Of a stretch of DNA of 4,216 nucleotides, positions 114-4,120 are shown piece by piece. The stretch comes from a virus. Its lineage: Duplodnaviria; Heunggongvirae; Uroviricota; Caudoviricetes. Where the stretch lies: the IMG/VR virus record IMGVR_UViG_2703718821_000005. One strand, written 5' to 3'. A program made the translations under genes and the position numbers. The first letter of the stretch is position 1, and each line of letters begins with the position of its first letter. The notes beneath the pieces were generated by a model. That model saw nothing but the letters and a program-made list of their open reading frames with translations, made no database searches and was not told the DNA's origin.

Positions 114-269
114 TTACTTCTCAGATTCGTAGTCTACGAAGACAGCAACCTCCGTCTGGCCGGTTCGGATTCGTACCTCGCAGAGGTCTTTCCTCGTTAC
201 CAGTGCCGTCACTATGACGGTTAAACAGATGACGATCAGGGCGATTAGCATCGCCTTTTGCTGCTTCAT
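114..269 (-). CDS. hok: Hok/Gef-family type I toxin (small membrane-depolarising peptide), 51 aa
   Basis: Internal Met of the 114..326 ORF gives MKQQKAMLIALIVICLTVIVTALVTRKDLCEVRIRTGQTEVAVFVDYESEK: hydrophobic N-terminal helix, conserved RKDLCEV and TGQTEVA motifs of the Hok/Gef family. ATG at 269-267 is preceded by AAGGAG about 9 nt upstream. Closest by memory to E. coli HokC/HokD; exact paralog not certain. Confidence 0.85.
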   Translation of the reverse strand: MKQQKAMLIALIVICLTVIVTALVTRKDLCEVRIRTGQTEVAVFVDYESEK

Positions 270-326
270 AGCCTGCTGCTCCTTGCCTTTCGGCGCATAA
301 GAGGCTAATCTAAGTGTGCAAGTCAT
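114..326 (-). CDS. mok: mok-like overlapping reading frame (in-frame 19-codon N-terminal extension of hok; translational coupling ORF)
   Basis: ORF track 70-aa ORF begins MTCTLRLASYAPKGKEQQA and continues in frame into Hok, as in chromosomal mokC/hokC-type loci. ATG at 326-324 is preceded by GAGG about 8 nt upstream. Confidence 0.55.
   Translation of the reverse strand: MTCTLRLASYAPKGKEQQAMKQQKAMLIALIVICLTVIVTALVTRKDLCEVRIRTGQTEVAVFVDYESEK
283..311 (+). promoter_or_regulatory. Putative sigma70 promoter for Sok-like antisense RNA (TTGCCT -17 bp- TAATCT)
   Basis: -35 TTGCCT at 283-288, 17-bp spacer, -10 TAATCT at 306-311, inside the mok/hok coding region on the opposite strand. Predicted start near 318. 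Confidence 0.35.
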
Positions 327-389
327 AGATATGGCCTCAGATTAATGTTAAGCGTCTTGCCAGACGCGTAATGTTAACTGGGGCTTTTC
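318..389 (+). ncRNA. sok: Sok-like antisense RNA (type I antitoxin), about 70 nt, antisense to the mok translation-initiation region
   Basis: Predicted start about 318 from the promoter above. Covers the complement of the mok start codon (324-326) and its SD. Ends in a compound stem-loop: outer stem 334-340 / 378-384 (one G-U pair) enclosing a 6-bp hairpin GCGTCT-tgcc-AGACGC (352-367), followed by TTTT at 385-388. Geometry matches plasmid R1 hok/sok. Boundaries approximate. Confidence 0.4.
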
Positions 390-445
390 TCTATCTGCCT
401 TTTGGTGTTCATGCCTGAGACCGATAGCCTCAAGCACCCGCAGCA

Positions 446-590: not shown

Positions 591-619
591 TTGCAATAAA
601 AATAGCAAACGTGTATAAA
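591..619 (+). promoter_or_regulatory. Putative sigma70 promoter for the uORF-kinase-phosphatase operon (TTGCAA -17 bp- TATAAA)
   Basis: -35 TTGCAA at 591-596, 17-bp spacer, -10 TATAAA at 614-619 with TG at 612-613. Caveat: the -10 abuts the uORF SD (619-625), so this promoter and SD-dependent uORF translation cannot both be right. Confidence 0.25.
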
Positions 620-631
620 AGGAGGTAATGC

Positions 632-670
632 ATGTTTTTCCAGTCTTATCAATCCATTACTGAGAGTTAA
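632..670 (+). CDS. 12-codon upstream ORF (MFFQSYQSITES) with strong SD; possible leader peptide coupled to kinase translation
   Basis: AAGGAGG at 619-625, 6-nt spacer, ATG at 632. Stop TAA at 668-670 sits inside the kinase SD (AAGGGGG at 669-675). Below the ORF-track size cutoff; found by reading the sequence. Confidence 0.25.
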   Translation: MFFQSYQSITES

Positions 671-679
671 GGGGGCGCC

Positions 680-1474
680 GTGGATCGGTGCGGTAATTAT
701 TTACTTAAAGATGGTCGCAGTTTAGGACAAGGGAGTTTTGGCGAAGTATTTAAGGTTGATGTCTATAACTTAACCCAGACCCACATGACCACATATGCTC
801 GCAAATACTTTTCACCTTGCCCGGACTTTGACAAGACCGCTATAAAAGAGTTGACTGATTTAAGACAGCGTTTTTTAGTTGAGATCAAAACACAATGCAC
901 TCTCAATAGAATAAACTATGATTCAATAGCGCCAATAGTTTTATTTAATACAAATGGTGATAAACCTTATTTTGTTATGGAATTGGCAGAGTGTAACTTA
1001 TATGAAGCCATCCGCAATGGTATGAACTACGCGGAGAGGAAGTCTGCTGTTACTCAGATTTTAAAAGGAATTATCACCATACATGAAAACAACTATATAC
1101 ATCGTGATTTAAAACCAGGAAACATACTTTATTATGCCGATGGAAAGTATAAAATATCTGATTTTGGTCTAGTAAAAGACAGAGATACCTTACGGGCCGA
1201 AATCAAAACAAAATTTAAGCCTAATCACATGGGCACAGATGGATATCGAGCGCCCGAAATACATGATAGCGGTCTTTTTTCTTTTCAAAGTGACATATTT
1301 GCAGCAGGTAAAATTATCACTGATATATATCCCACAGAAAGAAGTGAAAAATTAAAAAGATTGATTGCAAAATGTTGCGCACATTGGCCTGAAGAACGAT
1401 ATCAAAGCACACGGGAGTTACTGGAAGATTTTTTAAAAGTGACGGGGGAGGTAAATCATGAAGAACATAATTGA
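680..1474 (+). CDS. Hanks-type (eukaryotic-like) Ser/Thr protein kinase, kinase domain only, 264 aa, GTG start
   Basis: Glycine loop LGQGSFGEV; candidate beta3 Lys in YARKYF; catalytic loop HRDLKPGN; DFG in ISDFGL; activation segment GTDGYRAPE. GTG at 680 with AAGGGGG 4 nt upstream. AT-rich codon usage. No recognisable sensor or transmembrane domain. Confidence 0.85.
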   Translation: MDRCGNYLLKDGRSLGQGSFGEVFKVDVYNLTQTHMTTYARKYFSPCPDFDKTAIKELTDLRQRFLVEIKTQCTLNRINYDSIAPIVLFNTNGDKPYFVMELAECNLYEAIRNGMNYAERKSAVTQILKGIITIHENNYIHRDLKPGNILYYADGKYKISDFGLVKDRDTLRAEIKTKFKPNHMGTDGYRAPEIHDSGLFSFQSDIFAAGKIITDIYPTERSEKLKRLIAKCCAHWPEERYQSTRELLEDFLKVTGEVNHEEHN

Positions 1475-2174
1475 AATGGCATGTTTTAGCCTAAAACAAC
1501 CCCAAAAAAAAGAAAATGAAGACTTTTATTTACCGCCATCTTTTGATAGCGATTTTAACATTGTCTTTGCAGTAGCTGATGGGGTTGGTTCCTCTGAACA
1601 TTCAATGCTTGCATCTCATGCAGCCATTCGTGGCATTAGACACACGCTAGGCACTTCCTTTTTCTCAATTGAAAGTGCATTTCATTCAGCTAAAAAAGAA
1701 ATTGACAATTTAGATATTAGCACTGCCACAACCTTAACAATTGTTCAGATCAAAAAAAATGAAGTGTTAATTGGTCATTCCGGTGATTGCCGAGTATACT
1801 TCAATAAAAACAATAAACTAAATCAGTTAACCACTGATCAAACGAGATATCAAGAACTCCTTGATTCTGGTGAACATAAATTACGTAATTTAAGAAATCA
1901 TAAAGAACGGCTATCTTCAGTCCTAACGAATGCTTTATCAAATACAACGGATTTGAATTTTGAGTTAATGTCTTTTCCGATTAGCCAGCTAATTTATAAT
2001 GGCTATCTTCAACTCTATGCAATGACTGATGGTGCCTATAAGCATTGGGATGTCAGACCAAGGTTTTCTGAGAAGACAATGCTCTCACCAACAGCTTTTG
2101 CGAGTAGTTTAAGAAAAAGGATTGAGAAAAACATAATGGATGATTACACCTTTATAGGCGTAAAAGTAACCTAA
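1458..2174 (+). CDS. PP2C/PPM-family Ser/Thr protein phosphatase, 238 aa
   Basis: PPM-like motifs: KKENEDFY (RxxNED-like), VADGVGSS (DGxGG-like), GHSGDCRVY (GDSR-like), MTDGAY, C-terminal DDYTFIGV (DN-I/V-T-like). ATG at 1458 with GGGGGAGG 6 nt upstream; overlaps the kinase 3' end by 17 nt. Confidence 0.8.
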   Translation: MKNIIEMACFSLKQPQKKENEDFYLPPSFDSDFNIVFAVADGVGSSEHSMLASHAAIRGIRHTLGTSFFSIESAFHSAKKEIDNLDISTATTLTIVQIKKNEVLIGHSGDCRVYFNKNNKLNQLTTDQTRYQELLDSGEHKLRNLRNHKERLSSVLTNALSNTTDLNFELMSFPISQLIYNGYLQLYAMTDGAYKHWDVRPRFSEKTMLSPTAFASSLRKRIEKNIMDDYTFIGVKVT

Positions 2175-2327: not shown

Positions 2328-2432
2328 TCATATCACGCCATGCTTCCACCGCGGTAACTCTACATAGTCCATTAACAGTTCATGCCATTCTTCAAAACTG
2401 ACGTTGTATTTAGTTGAACCAAAATCAGCCAT
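2328..2432 (-). CDS. Small ORF, 34 aa (MADFGSTKYNVSFEEWHELLMDYVELPRWKHGVI), hypothetical
   Basis: ATG at 2432-2430 lies 2 nt past the stop of the 60-aa ORF in a different frame; stop TGA at 2330-2328. No convincing SD. Found by manual translation; may be spurious. Confidence 0.15.
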   Translation of the reverse strand: MADFGSTKYNVSFEEWHELLMDYVELPRWKHGVI

Positions 2433-2607
2433 TTTGTTCTTCCTCTTCGTCTTTTATTTCGTGATATGAGTAATTGCAGTAGTTAAAGAAAATTTCTTTT
2501 GCTTCGTTATGAATTTCATCAGGCGTCGCATCATCATTCACTTCGAATTCATCCTCGAAATCTCCACCGGCGATTCCCGTTTCAATAATTATTTTGAACT
2601 TTCGCAT
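2425..2607 (-). CDS. Small, highly acidic hypothetical protein, 60 aa
   Basis: ORF track: MRKFKIIIETGIAGGDFEDEFEVNDDATPDEIHNEAKEIFFNYCNYSYHEIKDEEEEQNG, rich in Asp/Glu with a poly-Glu C-terminus. AT-rich like the kinase operon. Possible split SD (AGGAG at 2636-2632 separated from the ATG by a hairpin). Confidence 0.4.
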   Translation of the reverse strand: MRKFKIIIETGIAGGDFEDEFEVNDDATPDEIHNEAKEIFFNYCNYSYHEIKDEEEEQNG

Positions 2608-2613
2608 TTCACT

Positions 2614-2631
2614 ACCGCCCTGCCGGGCGGT
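2614..2631 (-). other. GC-rich perfect hairpin (ACCGCCC-GGCA-GGGCGGT on the minus strand) between the SD-like AGGAG and the ATG of the 60-aa ORF, at the right edge of the AT-rich insert
   Basis: 7-bp exact stem (6 G-C pairs), 4-nt loop. Not followed by a U-run on either strand, so not a canonical terminator. Confidence 0.3.
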
Positions 2632-2754
2632 CTCCTGATGTTCTGAGGGTGCAGGAATCCCTCCGGTTAAGGATTAAATTTTATTTACAGTGCTGATTTT
2701 AATTATTCAGTTCTGGATTATGCTTTCTCTTTCACCTGCCGTAGTTCCTGGTAA

Positions 2755-3060
2755 TTAATTTCGCTCACTGGTTGCCTCCTGGAAAATAACTGCATGCCCC
2801 AGTTTCTCCGCCAGTGCCAGCTCTGCCTTAGCGCCTGCCGACCGCTGCCAGCCTTCCAGCATATAAACCGCATCCACACAACGAATCATTGCCATGCAAA
2901 TATCCATGTAATGTGGCTGAGTCAGCCCGTCCGGAAGTACTGCGGGATTTAATACGGTATGCCCTTCCTGTTTCAGTGCTTCTTCCGCCTTGTGAAACGC
3001 CTCACGGTTGAAATTTTCATATCCCGTCATCGGACCGGCGATATAAATTCTCACCCTCAC
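2755..3060 (-). CDS. DUF4406-like (nucleoside 2-deoxyribosyltransferase-like fold) phage-associated protein, 101 aa
   Basis: N-terminal RIYIAGPMTG motif resembles the IY(L/I)AGP signature of this fold; size typical of DUF4406 proteins as I recall. GTG start at 3060-3058 preceded by AGGAGG 8 nt upstream, and overlapping the upstream stop as GTGA. Confidence 0.7.
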   Translation of the reverse strand: MRVRIYIAGPMTGYENFNREAFHKAEEALKQEGHTVLNPAVLPDGLTQPHYMDICMAMIRCVDAVYMLEGWQRSAGAKAELALAEKLGHAVIFQEATSERN

Positions 3061-3338
3061 GCCTGAACCCTCCTGTCGAAATAAACGTAGTTATTCACTG
3101 CGCCCAACTTCATCCCAAACTTTTCGGCAATTTCCCGTCGGGGTACGCCACGCTGATGCAGTTGCCGCGCCAGCTCAATATCACGCTGTGAACATTTGGC
3201 TGACTGGTGATAATCACCCCGTAACATCATGCAGATACCCAGTTCCCGCGCTTTCGTCCTGACGGCAGCCCCACTACGGCCAATCAGACTGCCGATGCTT
3301 TCGACTGTCATCGTTCCCGCACACTGCCGGAGTATCAT
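3057..3338 (-). CDS. Small putative DNA-binding protein with two HTH-like segments, 93 aa from ATG at 3338 (ORF track extends to 3461, 134 aa)
   Basis: HTH-like segments MTVESIGSLIGRSGAAVRTKARELGI and RDIELARQLHQRGVPRREIAEKFGMKLGAVNNYV. Start is ambiguous: the track start at 3461 overlaps the upstream gene by 91 nt out of frame; internal ATGs at 3338 and 3311 avoid this. Stop TGA at 3059-3057. Confidence 0.55.
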   Translation of the reverse strand: MILRQCAGTMTVESIGSLIGRSGAAVRTKARELGICMMLRGDYHQSAKCSQRDIELARQLHQRGVPRREIAEKFGMKLGAVNNYVYFDRRVQA

Positions 3339-3370
3339 AATTTCCGCCCAGCGCCACTTCTTCCAGCCAC

Positions 3371-4087
3371 TCACCGCAGCAGCTCTCTGGTGGCGGTAAT
3401 ATCCCGGAGAATATCCCTGTGTTTGTTCAGTTCCCGCAGCGCGGCGCAGACACGCTCCCACTTCTGAACCTGACCTTTTGCCCGGCGCAGCTCGCGGTTA
3501 GCCACATGCAGCGATGGTAGAATCAGGTCATCTGCTTTCGTTTCGGTGACCGATGGCTGTAACTTCACAATGTCTTCCACGATTTCTGTTTTCATTTCTT
3601 CCTGTGTCGTCGTTTCCCGGACTGGTAACGCAACACCTGCTGGCTGAGGAAAGGCTTTACCATCTGTTTCCGCTACGGATGCAGCTTCCGGCTCTGCCGG
3701 TAAATCAGCGCCCGGTATGCAGTAACGAAATTTACCGCCCTGATTCACGCGAATCAGACGCCCTTTGCTGATTGCCATGGCCAGCGATGAATTCGCCCGG
3801 CGGGAGGTAATCCCGAACATCAGTGCCAGCTCATCTGCCGTTTGTGGGCCATGTTGTTCAATCGCCTTAATCAGCATTTGCGCTGTCACTTTCGGTACCG
3901 GTGACACCGGTTCACTTTCACCAGCCTGAATCAGCCACCACATCGAACCCTTGTTATCCGCTTCACCGCGGCGCTTCAGTTTCCACAGTTCGTTGACCGC
4001 ATCTTCACGGCTGATTCCAAGGCGGGCCGCCACTACCTGTGAAGAGGCTCTTTTCAGTGCTTTCAGTGCGTCAAATACAGTTTCCAT
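3371..4087 (-). CDS. Phage-like hypothetical protein with two tandem winged-helix-like N-terminal repeats and a charged, likely coiled-coil C-terminus, 238 aa
   Basis: ORF track frame 3371..4105, re-started here at ATG 4087-4085 (METVFDALK...) because GGAGG lies about 9 nt upstream, whereas the track's TTG at 4105 overlaps that SD. Repeats [41 protein letters not shown] and [43 protein letters not shown] align by eye. Confidence 0.7.
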
Positions 4088-4120
4088 TAAAATTTCCTCC
4101 GACAAAATCGTTTCTCAGAT

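Follow-up and report, generated by a model that had tools for sequence, protein, structure and literature searches.

The bicistronic design (BCD) attributed to Mutalik et al. 2013 reportedly joins a short leader ORF to a gene through the stop/start overlap TAATG, and is said to aim at dependable, high-level expression. Toxin translation at the type I toxin-antitoxin loci hok/sok depends upon an overlapping reading frame (mok-hok coupling). Adjacent ORFs are coupled through termination-reinitiation or RNA unfolding at trpE-trpD, at galT-galK and between the coat and lysis genes of fr and MS2 (reviewed in PMC12548453), and in reported cases an increase in the stop-start distance of less than 20 nt can already cut coupling substantially (PMC12548453). 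For Sinorhizobium meliloti, the study that describes upstream ribosome-binding sites (RBSs) itself cautions that some of those predicted are probably upstream of the transcription start (PMC13285730). In the kinase-kinase-phosphatase prophage module KKP (PfkA/PfkB/PfpC), a PP2C gene is followed by two kinase genes of 900-1300 bp; the kinases act as toxins with the phosphatase as their antidote, and together they confer phage defence (PMC11341870).

Here we analyze a 4,216-nt stretch of caudoviricete DNA (the window) in which a Ser/Thr kinase gene is preceded by a 12-codon upstream ORF (uORF) with a strong Shine-Dalgarno (SD)-like sequence. A preliminary description of this DNA had proposed that the uORF controls the kinase, either by termination-reinitiation coupling or as a leader peptide. 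Because the uORF is confined to one young Escherichia coli lineage and its SD overlaps a conserved promoter, the chief control of kinase levels probably lies elsewhere. Our preferred reading, to which we assign a probability of roughly 0.55, is that the kinase is translated autonomously from its own promoter and SD, and that the uORF is not what sets the basal kinase level.

The kinase and phosphatase genes

The kinase gene (680..1474, + strand) starts with GTG and encodes a Ser/Thr protein kinase of 264 aa (Pfam Pkinase, 1.4e-31), in agreement with the PGAP annotation (WP_000373318.1). Its catalytic residues (K42, HRD 141-143, N148 and DFG 161-163) are invariant in the alignment, homologous kinases are 255-265 aa long, and the best PADLOC matches are mad6 (1e-37), PD-T4-6 (1.2e-32) and Stk2 (2.6e-25). 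Like PD-T4-6, Stk2 and the 933W Stk, this is a prophage-carried, eukaryotic-like kinase domain with intact catalytic motifs; unlike the single-gene systems PD-T4-6 and Stk2, it is a bare kinase domain (264 aa) that is always paired with a PP2C. The partner gene (1458..2174, + strand) encodes a PP2C-family phosphatase of 238 aa with an ATG start (Pfam PP2C_2, 1.4e-10), overlaps the kinase stop by 17 nt, and has its SD, GGAGG (1447..1451, + strand; duplex -12.6 kcal/mol), inside the end of the kinase ORF. No PADLOC model matched the PP2C.

A PP2C gene lies 3' of the kinase gene in every related locus, down to 33% identity. The phosphatase always starts with ATG (28 of 28 distinct loci) and has a good SD abutting or overlapping the kinase stop. 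The kinase starts with GTG in 17 of 19 loci at >=55% identity, and across the family loci the mean SD energy is -6.5 for the kinase versus -8.8 for the PP2C. A toxin/antidote defence module would be expected to show an asymmetry of this kind between its two starts. The locus resembles KKP in that a Ser/Thr kinase and a PP2C phosphatase are borne by prophages and satellites, and differs from it in having one 795-bp kinase gene followed by one 717-bp PP2C gene, both here and in all related loci examined. From this context and the GTG/ATG asymmetry, we infer that the kinase may be toxic, that the phosphatase may neutralize it, and that the pair may have an anti-phage role.

Promoter and predicted transcription start

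The module carries its own putative promoter, which consists of a -35-like TTGCAA (591..596, + strand) and a -10-like TATAAA (614..619, + strand) separated by 17 nt, with a predicted start at ~625-628. A promoter with this -10 had been named in the preliminary description as the best match, and a rough PWM scan of 430-700 found it again as the top + strand match. Two observations weigh against it, and with it against our preferred reading. Its score of 7.8 does not exceed the best scores reached by shuffled sequence, which average 9.1, and its -10 is without the final T, a base that is usually critical and whose absence hides the promoter from a stricter consensus scan. The same PWM scan placed the start of the neighboring hok at 439, the exact beginning of the Rfam model.

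The promoter is nevertheless favored by its conservation. TTGC is invariant in all haplotypes and TATAAA in every enterobacterial-clade haplotype, including L195, a locus with a kinase 70% identical and an unrelated leader that keeps both elements at the 17-nt spacing. Homology between lineages begins at the -35, and the indels of 1-9 nt that separate haplotypes begin only downstream of the -10. TTGC and TATAAA at 17-nt spacing thus form the conserved left edge of the cargo.

The SD-like AAGGAGG of the uORF (619..625, + strand) overlaps this promoter at the final base of its -10 and throughout its discriminator (-6 to -1). That conflict had been noted at the outset, and the invariant -35 and -10, their spacing, their place at the edge of the module and their retention in L195 tip it in favor of the promoter, for which the start itself is a prediction. 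Counted from a start near 626, GGAGG would occupy about -5 to -1 and would not be transcribed. If transcription does begin there, the GGAGG of the apparent uORF SD would be promoter DNA (discriminator) and not mRNA, and the AUG of the uORF would lie only ~5-7 nt from the 5' end, with no SD, so that it would be weakly translated if at all. It is thus most likely that the RBS of the uORF lies upstream of the transcription start, as cautioned in S. meliloti (PMC13285730), with whose upstream RBSs and uORFs it shares an SD and start codon within 100 nt upstream of a gene, and possible coupling or occlusion. A strong SD and ATG upstream of a gene should therefore be labeled a uORF only once the transcription start is known.

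Inclusion of the uORF SD in the mRNA requires a start further upstream. Above 591, neither PWM nor consensus scans found a promoter comparably good or conserved; the runner-up, TTGGAA (523-528) with AAGACT (545-550), which scores 6.3, was rejected, since L002 carries a mutation in the -35 and the site falls outside the conserved module. Some transcripts could even so take in the uORF SD, through read-through or from a weak promoter further upstream, which counts against our preferred reading. Literature searches returned no published start-site or ribosome-profiling data for the kinase locus.

The start region of the kinase gene

The kinase SD, AAGGGGG (669..675, + strand), is strong, with a predicted duplex energy of -11.2 kcal/mol, and is followed by the spacer CGCC (676-679), which bears out the earlier account of a GTG start 4 nt behind it. 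GTG 680 is the sole usable start, because the TAA at 668 closes the frame and the next in-frame Met is residue 36, past the glycine-rich loop. Kinase homologues begin with M/V-D/E-x-C-G-N-Y at the position aligned with this codon. A predicted hairpin at 675..691 (+ strand; GCGCCG-UGGAU-CGGUGC, -10.5 kcal/mol) encloses the spacer between SD and start together with the G of GUG, while the SD itself has a mean predicted unpaired probability of 0.60. The hairpin sequence is invariant in the enterobacterial clade, with no covariation, and is absent from all other clades; the G-rich SD (a run of 5-7 G) is retained throughout the same clade. The enterobacterial clade is thus fixed for GTG as the start codon, for a strong SD and for the -10.5 kcal/mol hairpin over the start.

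The GTG start and start hairpin, together with the ATG and strong SD of the phosphatase, fit weak translation of a toxin-like kinase. According to the reading that we prefer, the kinase would be translated weakly from its own SD, because of its GTG start and hairpin, and the phosphatase would be translated well; the outcome would be a toxin-low, antidote-high balance, as in other prophage kinase/phosphatase defence modules. The preliminary description had instead suggested that coupling to the uORF keeps the basal kinase level low. Coupling would more likely raise translation, by opening the start hairpin, and the GTG start together with the hairpin accounts better than the uORF for a low basal level.

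The upstream reading frame and its relatives

Every base of the arrangement that had drawn attention to this region was verified in the sequence. The uORF (632..670, + strand), as read directly from the DNA, consists of 12 sense codons, MFFQSYQSITES, followed by TAA; its ATG (632-634) lies 6 nt from AAGGAGG, and its TAA (668-670) shares 2 nt with the kinase SD, ends 9 nt before the kinase start and lies 5 nt before the hairpin. The uORF and the kinase share a reading frame (positions 632 and 680 each give 2 mod 3), a point that the preliminary description did not make. The SD:anti-SD duplex of the uORF is predicted at -12.9 kcal/mol, and its AUG has a predicted unpaired probability of 0.82. 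When 440-679 was shuffled with dinucleotides preserved, 1 of 1000 shuffles produced an ATG with an equally good SD, so that this is no trivial chance match within the intergenic region, although the motif was selected post hoc out of a many-window scan. The rarity of this match by chance counts against our preferred reading.

A coupled leader would be expected to have its own SD and start codon and a stop within ~20 nt of the next start (PMC12548453 for the distance), and the uORF has these (9 nt in the window, 15-16 nt in the other E. coli haplotypes). Maintenance among homologous loci, which would lend further support, is not seen among the ~45 distinct loci compared, in which the SD-led uORF occurs only in the window, L184, L107 and L185 and is restricted to the E. 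coli lambdoid-prophage lineage. Within this lineage the SD varies (AAGGAGG, AAGGAGA and AAGGAAA), L002 and L013 having weakened forms. In sister lineages the AAGGAGG site reads AAAAGAAA or AAAAAGCT, and there is no SD. Outgroups have a GTG aligned with ATG 632, a 1-nt indel that breaks the frame and no ATG in the uORF frame, and the peptide would differ from that of the window at 3-4 of 10 residues.

Among the E. coli haplotypes, the ATG and first 10 codons are retained in all five, and the sole variant within the type is a synonymous CAA>CAG in L184. The uORF has 12 codons in the window; in the four other haplotypes it ends after 10 codons at a TAG, without the last two residues, and the stop accordingly lies 6 nt further upstream. 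This TAG, at 662, is ancestral and the GAG of the window is derived. In L185 an extra G shifts the uORF frame relative to that of the kinase. The haplotype of the window is the commonest (29 of 35 E. coli genomes), a point against our preferred reading; its difference from L002 in 620-680, ~8%, is in line with the module-wide divergence, which favors that reading. Of nine substitutions in the uORF frame, five are at third positions (counted by eye), a share that by rough estimate is not significant, the sites being too few to carry a conclusion. As the E. coli haplotypes are close relatives, the features that they share represent one evolutionary event.

What the uORF might do if translated

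Functional coupling through the uORF to the kinase is tentative at best, with somewhat less on its side than against it. Its most explicit form, an SD-led functional leader, we regard as unlikely. In this form the transcript would start upstream of 619, the 12 codons would be translated with termination at UAA 668-670, the helicase reach of the terminating ribosome would melt the 5' arm of the hairpin at 675-691, and the same ribosome, or a fresh 30S held by AAGGGGG, would initiate at GUG 680. Kinase synthesis would then depend upon leader translation, in a natural counterpart of the synthetic bicistronic design. The RBS is ideal for such a device, the hairpin begins just past the stop, and the stop precedes the start by a distance, with an overlapping SD, in the efficient-coupling range (PMC12548453). 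In addition, the ATG and first ten codons persist in all five E. coli haplotypes, and the substitutions derived in the E. coli lineage would all improve the device. These are A-to-G changes creating the SD, GTG>ATG at the start, TAG>GAG (by which the stop comes to lie 5 nt short of the hairpin) and TAG>TAA. Their common direction, toward a canonical coupled leader ORF, could reflect selection, and it is a further point against the reading that we prefer.

A functional leader needs a transcription start further upstream, and no good one presents itself: the conserved promoter would leave GGAGG outside the mRNA, and the sole upstream promoter candidate is weak and not conserved. The rest of the family (~40 members, the nearest sister lineages among them) also lacks the arrangement, and within the E. 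coli lineage the SD is weakened in two loci and four haplotypes stop at a point beyond hairpin reach; persistence of the ten codons among such close relatives is again a single event. Of the coupling that had been proposed, therefore, the geometry stands, with a stop 9 nt from the start and an overlapping SD, and what tells against it is the lack of conservation and the promoter that overlaps the SD.

Comparison with described couplings yields a similarly mixed result. As at trpE-trpD, there is a stop 9 nt before the start, an SD at the junction and a start hairpin that a terminating ribosome could open; unlike there, the upstream ORF is a 12-codon leader and not a gene, its RBS lies at a predicted promoter, the SD of the kinase is mostly open and could suffice by itself, and the arrangement is unconserved in homologues. 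The BCD layout is matched by a first SD, a short leader ORF with a second SD in its 3' end and a stop beside the gene start, whereas a 9-nt gap takes the place of the TAATG overlap and a GTG start, apparently tuned for low expression, the place of high expression. The likeness to mok-hok is that translation of a toxic product would depend on an upstream frame; the kinase leader has neither an antisense RNA nor a long-range fold-back, and the uORF does not overlap the kinase ORF.

Were the SD-led leader functional, it would be a natural, very young leader cistron gating the translation of a toxic defence kinase, and a clean system for the origin of regulatory uORFs. More doubtful still is a recent conversion of the kinase leader, in the E. 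coli lambdoid lineage, into a gate resembling a natural bicistronic design. Ribosome traffic through the leader would in that case govern kinase synthesis and therefore the kinase:phosphatase balance of a toxin-like defence module, both of which could respond to the shut-off of translation in phage infection; the stepwise derived changes would be the birth of a regulatory uORF caught in the act.

A second alternative accepts the predicted promoter and is, in our judgment, improbable. The mRNA would run from ~626-628, with AUG 628 or 632 at 0-6 nt from its 5' end and read at a low level with no SD, and an occasional terminating ribosome would modulate opening of the hairpin or transiently occlude the kinase SD. 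The predicted start (626±2) allows this, as a start at A628 would give an RNA beginning with AUG, and the AUG of the uORF is predicted to be mostly unpaired. Initiation of the leaderless type in E. coli, however, suffers strongly from a few extra 5' nucleotides. Depending on the haplotype, 11 to 17 nt separate the -10 from the first AUG, and the frames differ, so that no 5'-terminal AUG is conserved, which speaks against a conserved leaderless AUG.

The proposal of leader-peptide control found no support, and a sensor acting through attenuation or ribosome arrest (in response to a metabolite, tRNA charging or an antibiotic) is largely refuted and highly improbable. What speaks for it is a short ORF 5' of a hairpin that was flagged as terminator-like. 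That hairpin, at 675-691, covers the kinase start codon and is followed by GGUAAUUAUUU, a poor U-tract that is no true one, and terminator-like matches (2 found versus 2.3 expected from shuffles) are not above chance; we rejected it as an attenuator. Neither the 626-730 nor the 560-730 fold of the leader is more stable than shuffles (z = -0.4 and -0.6), and no alternative antiterminator fold was found in the leader (z = -0.4), so that the terminator and mutually exclusive antiterminator of trpL-type attenuation were not found between uORF and kinase. A weak inverted repeat at 625-633/652-660 (-3.1 kcal/mol) lacks conservation and was set aside as a leader structure. MFFQSYQSITES has no regulatory codon run beyond two Phe codons, and an Rfam scan of the whole window at E<=1 gave no leader match, the only real match being sok (264-439, minus strand). 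The peptide is unconserved outside one lineage and two residues shorter within it, and there is no conserved arrest peptide of the SecM/TnaC/ErmCL type among haplotypes and outgroups.

Weakest of all, the uORF as the N-terminus of a once longer kinase, from which a nonsense mutation severed it or to which stop-codon read-through still joins it, would explain the shared frame in the window and is rejected because homologues (255-265 aa) start at an aligned M/V-D-x-C-G-N-Y, the 1-nt indel of the outgroups and the extra G of L185 both break the frame, and the other E. coli haplotypes have two in-frame stops.

Distribution of the cargo

The more useful result is the context: a widespread, uncharacterized kinase-then-PP2C cargo of prophages and P4 satellites, with its own conserved promoter and a recurrent asymmetry between a weak (GTG) kinase start and a strong (ATG) phosphatase start. 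According to our preferred reading, the 12-codon ORF would be a young, lineage-restricted part of the leader of this cargo. The two-gene unit spans ~590-2180 and comprises the promoter, a leader of ~54 nt, the Ser/Thr kinase gene and then the PP2C phosphatase gene. Identity to the copies in Scandinavium, in Buttiauxella and of the P4 type rises from ~0.3-0.4 to ~0.7-0.8 at 590-600 and drops again after 2180. The module is present on many IMG/VR contigs, and a phage collection searched in near and distant modes gave no match to it. In the window the cargo lies within an E. coli lambdoid prophage, where it occupies the nin region, runs antisense to the early-right operon and adjoins the hokD/sok locus (114-439, minus strand). 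In P4 satellites the interval between psu and int is a defence hotspot (PMC9122126); the L186 copy is situated between psu and int, and the P0002-type copy lies directly downstream of psu in seven of the seven places examined.

A short leader ORF upstream of the kinase start codon

Re-reading of the plus strand upstream of the Ser/Thr kinase gene (680–1474) showed that the preliminary description of this region was exact. A Shine-Dalgarno sequence (SD), AAGGAGG (619–625), is followed after a 6-nt spacer by ATG 632, which opens an upstream ORF (uORF) of 12 sense codons (632–670; product MFFQSYQSITES); its TAA stop (668–670) shares two bases with the kinase SD, AAGGGGG (669–675), which a 4-nt spacer (CGCC) separates from GTG 680. 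A point absent from that description is that the uORF and the kinase lie in the same reading frame. With a stop at 668 in this frame and the following in-frame methionine only at residue 36, past the glycine-rich loop, GTG 680 is the sole possible kinase start. The PGAP annotation of the 264-aa protein is identical, and kinase homologues carry an M/V-D/E-x-C-G-N-Y opening at the aligned position. Predicted SD:anti-SD energies are −12.9 kcal/mol for the uORF, −11.2 for the kinase and −12.6 for the PP2C phosphatase gene downstream (1458–2174). An ATG with an SD as good as that of the uORF occurred in 1 of 1000 dinucleotide-preserving shuffles of the 440–679 intergenic region; the combination is beyond a trivial chance match, albeit one picked after the fact.

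A conserved promoter-like block overlaps the uORF SD

Predicted upstream ribosome binding sites may fall upstream of the transcription start (PMC13285730). In the window, the predicted promoter (TTGCAA 591–596, 17 nt, TATAAA 614–619) would place the start at about 625–628 and hence GGAGG (621–625) at −5 to −1, within untranscribed DNA. TTGC, TATAAA and their spacing in the block GCATTGC..(17-nt spacer)..GTGTATAAAA are invariant in every haplotype, with indels among haplotypes found only downstream of the block, which forms the left edge of the mobile unit. The most telling evidence for a promoter at this position is the retention of the block, with the same 17-nt spacing (GCATTGCGCGC...GGTGTATAAAAA), in L195, a P4-like copy with just 70% identity in its kinase and, apart from the block, an unrelated leader. 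A rough PWM scan ranked the block as the top plus-strand site in 430–700 and put the start of the neighboring hok gene at 439, exactly at the beginning of the Rfam model, which lends the scan some confidence. The argument rests on conservation, not motif strength: in absolute terms the promoter's PWM score does not exceed that of shuffled sequence, and the last T of the −10 is missing. The only upstream alternative, TTGGAA 523–528/AAGACT 545–550, is a weaker site that falls outside the module and whose −35 is mutated in the L002 haplotype. As for sok, the only known plus-strand transcript upstream, a terminator-like hairpin near 390 seems by eye (unscored) to mark its end. The conflict between promoter and uORF SD that the preliminary description raised thus leans, on the evidence of the conserved block, toward the promoter and exclusion of the SD from the transcript; judged from sequence, the uORF "SD" is probably promoter DNA. 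A weak inverted repeat (625–633/652–660, GTAATGCAT / ATCCATTAC; −3.1 kcal/mol), not kept in outgroups, could allow mid-uORF to base-pair with the very start of the predicted transcript, AUG 632 included.

The uORF is restricted to E. coli lambdoid haplotypes

We compared the kinase upstream regions of ~45 distinct loci. The E. coli lambdoid lineage contains five haplotypes of this region. The window haplotype (AAGGAGGTAATGC-ATG from SD to start, stop TAA) has 12 codons, as does L184, which is the same from SD to start and carries one synonymous CAA>CAG. Ten codons are found in L002/L013 (AAGGAAATATGC-ATG) and L107 (AAGGAGATATAT-ATG), all with a TAG stop, and in L185/L187 (AAGGAGATATGC-ATG); in L185 an additional G within the kinase SD run shifts the uORF frame relative to the kinase. 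This G-run (671–675, aligned in L002, L107 and L185) comprises 5, 6 or 7 G among E. coli haplotypes, altering the SD-to-start spacing.

The sister lineages (P4-type E. coli, Scandinavium and Buttiauxella; kinases 80–84% identical) have AAAAAGAAA or AAAAAGCT at the uORF SD position, a GTG aligned to ATG 632, indels of 1–9 nt right after the −10 and a 1-nt deletion ahead of the kinase SD. The single ATG available to them is 2 nt upstream, in a different frame, and opens a 21-codon ORF overlapping the kinase start; both this ATG and the GTG are missing from the L015 type. By parsimony, TAG at 662 and GTG at 632 are ancestral, and the GAG, ATG and full SD of the window derived. Scanning the collected loci for starts ahead of the kinase whose SD reaches −6 kcal/mol or lower, we found them only in E. 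coli lambdoid haplotypes; SD-led uORFs were absent from the short, unrelated leaders of distant clades (Xenorhabdus/Photorhabdus-like, Vibrio, Aeromonas, Acinetobacter, Providencia and others). Over 620–680, L002 departs from the window by ~8%, equal to the module-wide divergence, with no sign of special constraint or acceleration. The discriminator sequence affects open-complex stability, and the A-to-G changes that created the SD may be neutral or, more speculatively, may act on promoter kinetics.

Conserved signals point to weak kinase initiation

The kinase starts with GTG in 17 of the 19 distinct loci at 55% identity or above, and with ATG in the Enterobacter, Dickeya, Photobacterium and Pantoea copies and the whole clade at 40% identity or below. 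The PP2C start, which abuts or overlaps the kinase stop, is ATG in all loci (28/28), and mean SD energies are −8.8 kcal/mol for PP2C versus −6.5 for the kinase. Within the enterobacterial clade the kinase SD is strong and G-rich, and a predicted hairpin, GCGCCG-UGGAU-CGGUGC (675–691, −10.5 kcal/mol), locks the spacer between SD and start together with the initial G of the GUG; the hairpin is sequence-invariant in this clade and absent from all others, whose SDs are weak. The 30 nt after the start (690–719) are the most conserved stretch of the module (0.90–0.97 identity). Together, the GTG/ATG asymmetry, SD energies, start hairpin and conserved 690–719 stretch indicate that weaker initiation on the kinase than on the phosphatase has been selected for. 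By analogy with KKP, an experimentally studied, toxin/antitoxin-like defense module of a PP2C and two kinases (PMC11341870), this would be the balance expected if the kinase were toxic and the phosphatase its antidote.

We favor, with a probability of roughly 0.55, a reading in which the module would be transcribed from its own promoter, starting near 626, and the kinase translated autonomously and weakly through its own SD, hairpin and GTG start. The uORF AUG, lacking an SD, would then sit within a few nucleotides of the 5′ end, and the 12-codon ORF, a young, lineage-restricted leader sequence, would contribute little. Leader ORFs coupled to a downstream gene are of a well-known kind (PMC12548453, PMC13285730), and the uORF/kinase geometry resembles the synthetic bicistronic design. 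It is possible, if doubtful, that a longer transcript carries the full uORF ribosome binding site and that a ribosome terminating at 668–670 reaches the hairpin and reinitiates or permits GUG initiation: the 5′ arm of the hairpin begins 5 nt past the uORF stop, the stop/start geometry is within published coupling distances and the derived mutations all run in this direction, but in four haplotypes the stop lies 6 nt further upstream, leaving the hairpin out of reach. Such coupling would raise kinase translation, contrary to the earlier proposal that the uORF keeps basal kinase low. That interpretation is supported in part: the sequence arrangement stands, the uORF is not conserved, and its SD is likelier promoter DNA. 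Low-level, SD-independent translation of the 5′-proximal AUG is improbable, and the tests run contradict both attenuation or an arrest peptide, which is very improbable, and the least probable reading, a kinase N-terminal remnant or read-through. A functional uORF would be a new, very young coupled leader ORF on an uncharacterized defense-type kinase/PP2C pair; if the uORF is non-functional, the motif is misleading and the leader unremarkable.

The kinase/PP2C pair is a mobile two-gene cargo

The kinase consists of a kinase domain alone (Pfam Pkinase, 1.4e-31) and is overlapped by 17 nt by the 238-aa PP2C phosphatase. Lambdoid-type kinases (264 aa) are 7 residues longer than the P4-type (257 aa), and the 17-nt overlap (1458–1474) of lambdoid-type copies is a few-nt gap in P4-type junctions (L004/L186). 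The site belongs to the nin region of a lambdoid prophage, where the neighboring phage genes, including replication P, DUF1627, DUF4406, RusA and the Q antiterminator, are all encoded on the other strand from the pair. The minus-strand nin-region set (2425–4105) comprises DUF7167 (2425–2607), DUF4406 (2755–3060), a small HTH protein within 3057–3461 and DUF1627 (3371–4105); the mechanical 134-aa ORF at 3057–3461 overlaps the DUF1627 gene by ~90 nt, and its true start is probably further downstream.

The module was present in 35 of 5426 complete E. coli genomes, 29 of them with the window haplotype (at least 99% identity), including STEC O145:H28, O103:H2, O45:H2, O121, some O157:H7 strains and ETEC. 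In sliding-window comparisons with Scandinavium, Buttiauxella and other E. coli copies, homology starts at ~590–600 and ends just past the PP2C stop, at ~2180, which delimits a mobile two-gene unit bringing its own upstream region. The kinase-then-PP2C order held throughout the related loci recovered, which reach down to 33% identity and are mostly on IMG/VR prophage contigs. An 84%-identical E. coli version (P0002) lies directly downstream of psu in 7/7 places examined, and a copy of this type sits between psu and int in strain Z1323PEC0011, the P4-satellite defense hotspot of Rousset et al. (PMC9122126), whose supplement lists Pkinase+PP2C cargo, untested there. Copies 70–84% identical occupy this hotspot in other E. 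coli and relatives (L186, 3082–4575; L188–L194; L195, 1501–3009). In PADLOC the kinase best matches mad6, PD-T4-6 and Stk2, and the PP2C has no match among the models. PD-T4-6 and Stk2 are stand-alone systems, whereas this kinase is always paired with a PP2C and is thus neither; KKP is a relative in concept, but its gene number and order differ, so the module is not a member. It looks like an uncharacterized two-gene defense or toxin-antidote cargo.

The module adjoins a hokD/sok type I toxin-antitoxin locus (Pfam HOK_GEF; Rfam sok 264–439, minus strand). This locus, divergent from the kinase module, is complete at 114–439 on the minus strand (Hok/Gef ORF, Pfam 1e-22; sok, Rfam 3e-25), with a predicted hok promoter (TTGTGG-16-TAAAAT) giving a start at 439. 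A near-perfect palindrome (504–526, CCGATGTGGGA-T-TCCCACATTGG, 11-nt arms), a possible operator or junction remnant, is partly degraded in L002; the spacer in which it lies (486–590) is exclusive to E. coli prophages that carry the kinase (34 genomes). Further neighbors of the module include lysis genes (Providencia, L180), an integrase (Pantoea, L182) and TacAT/ParE toxin-antitoxin genes (Enterobacter, L177/L178).
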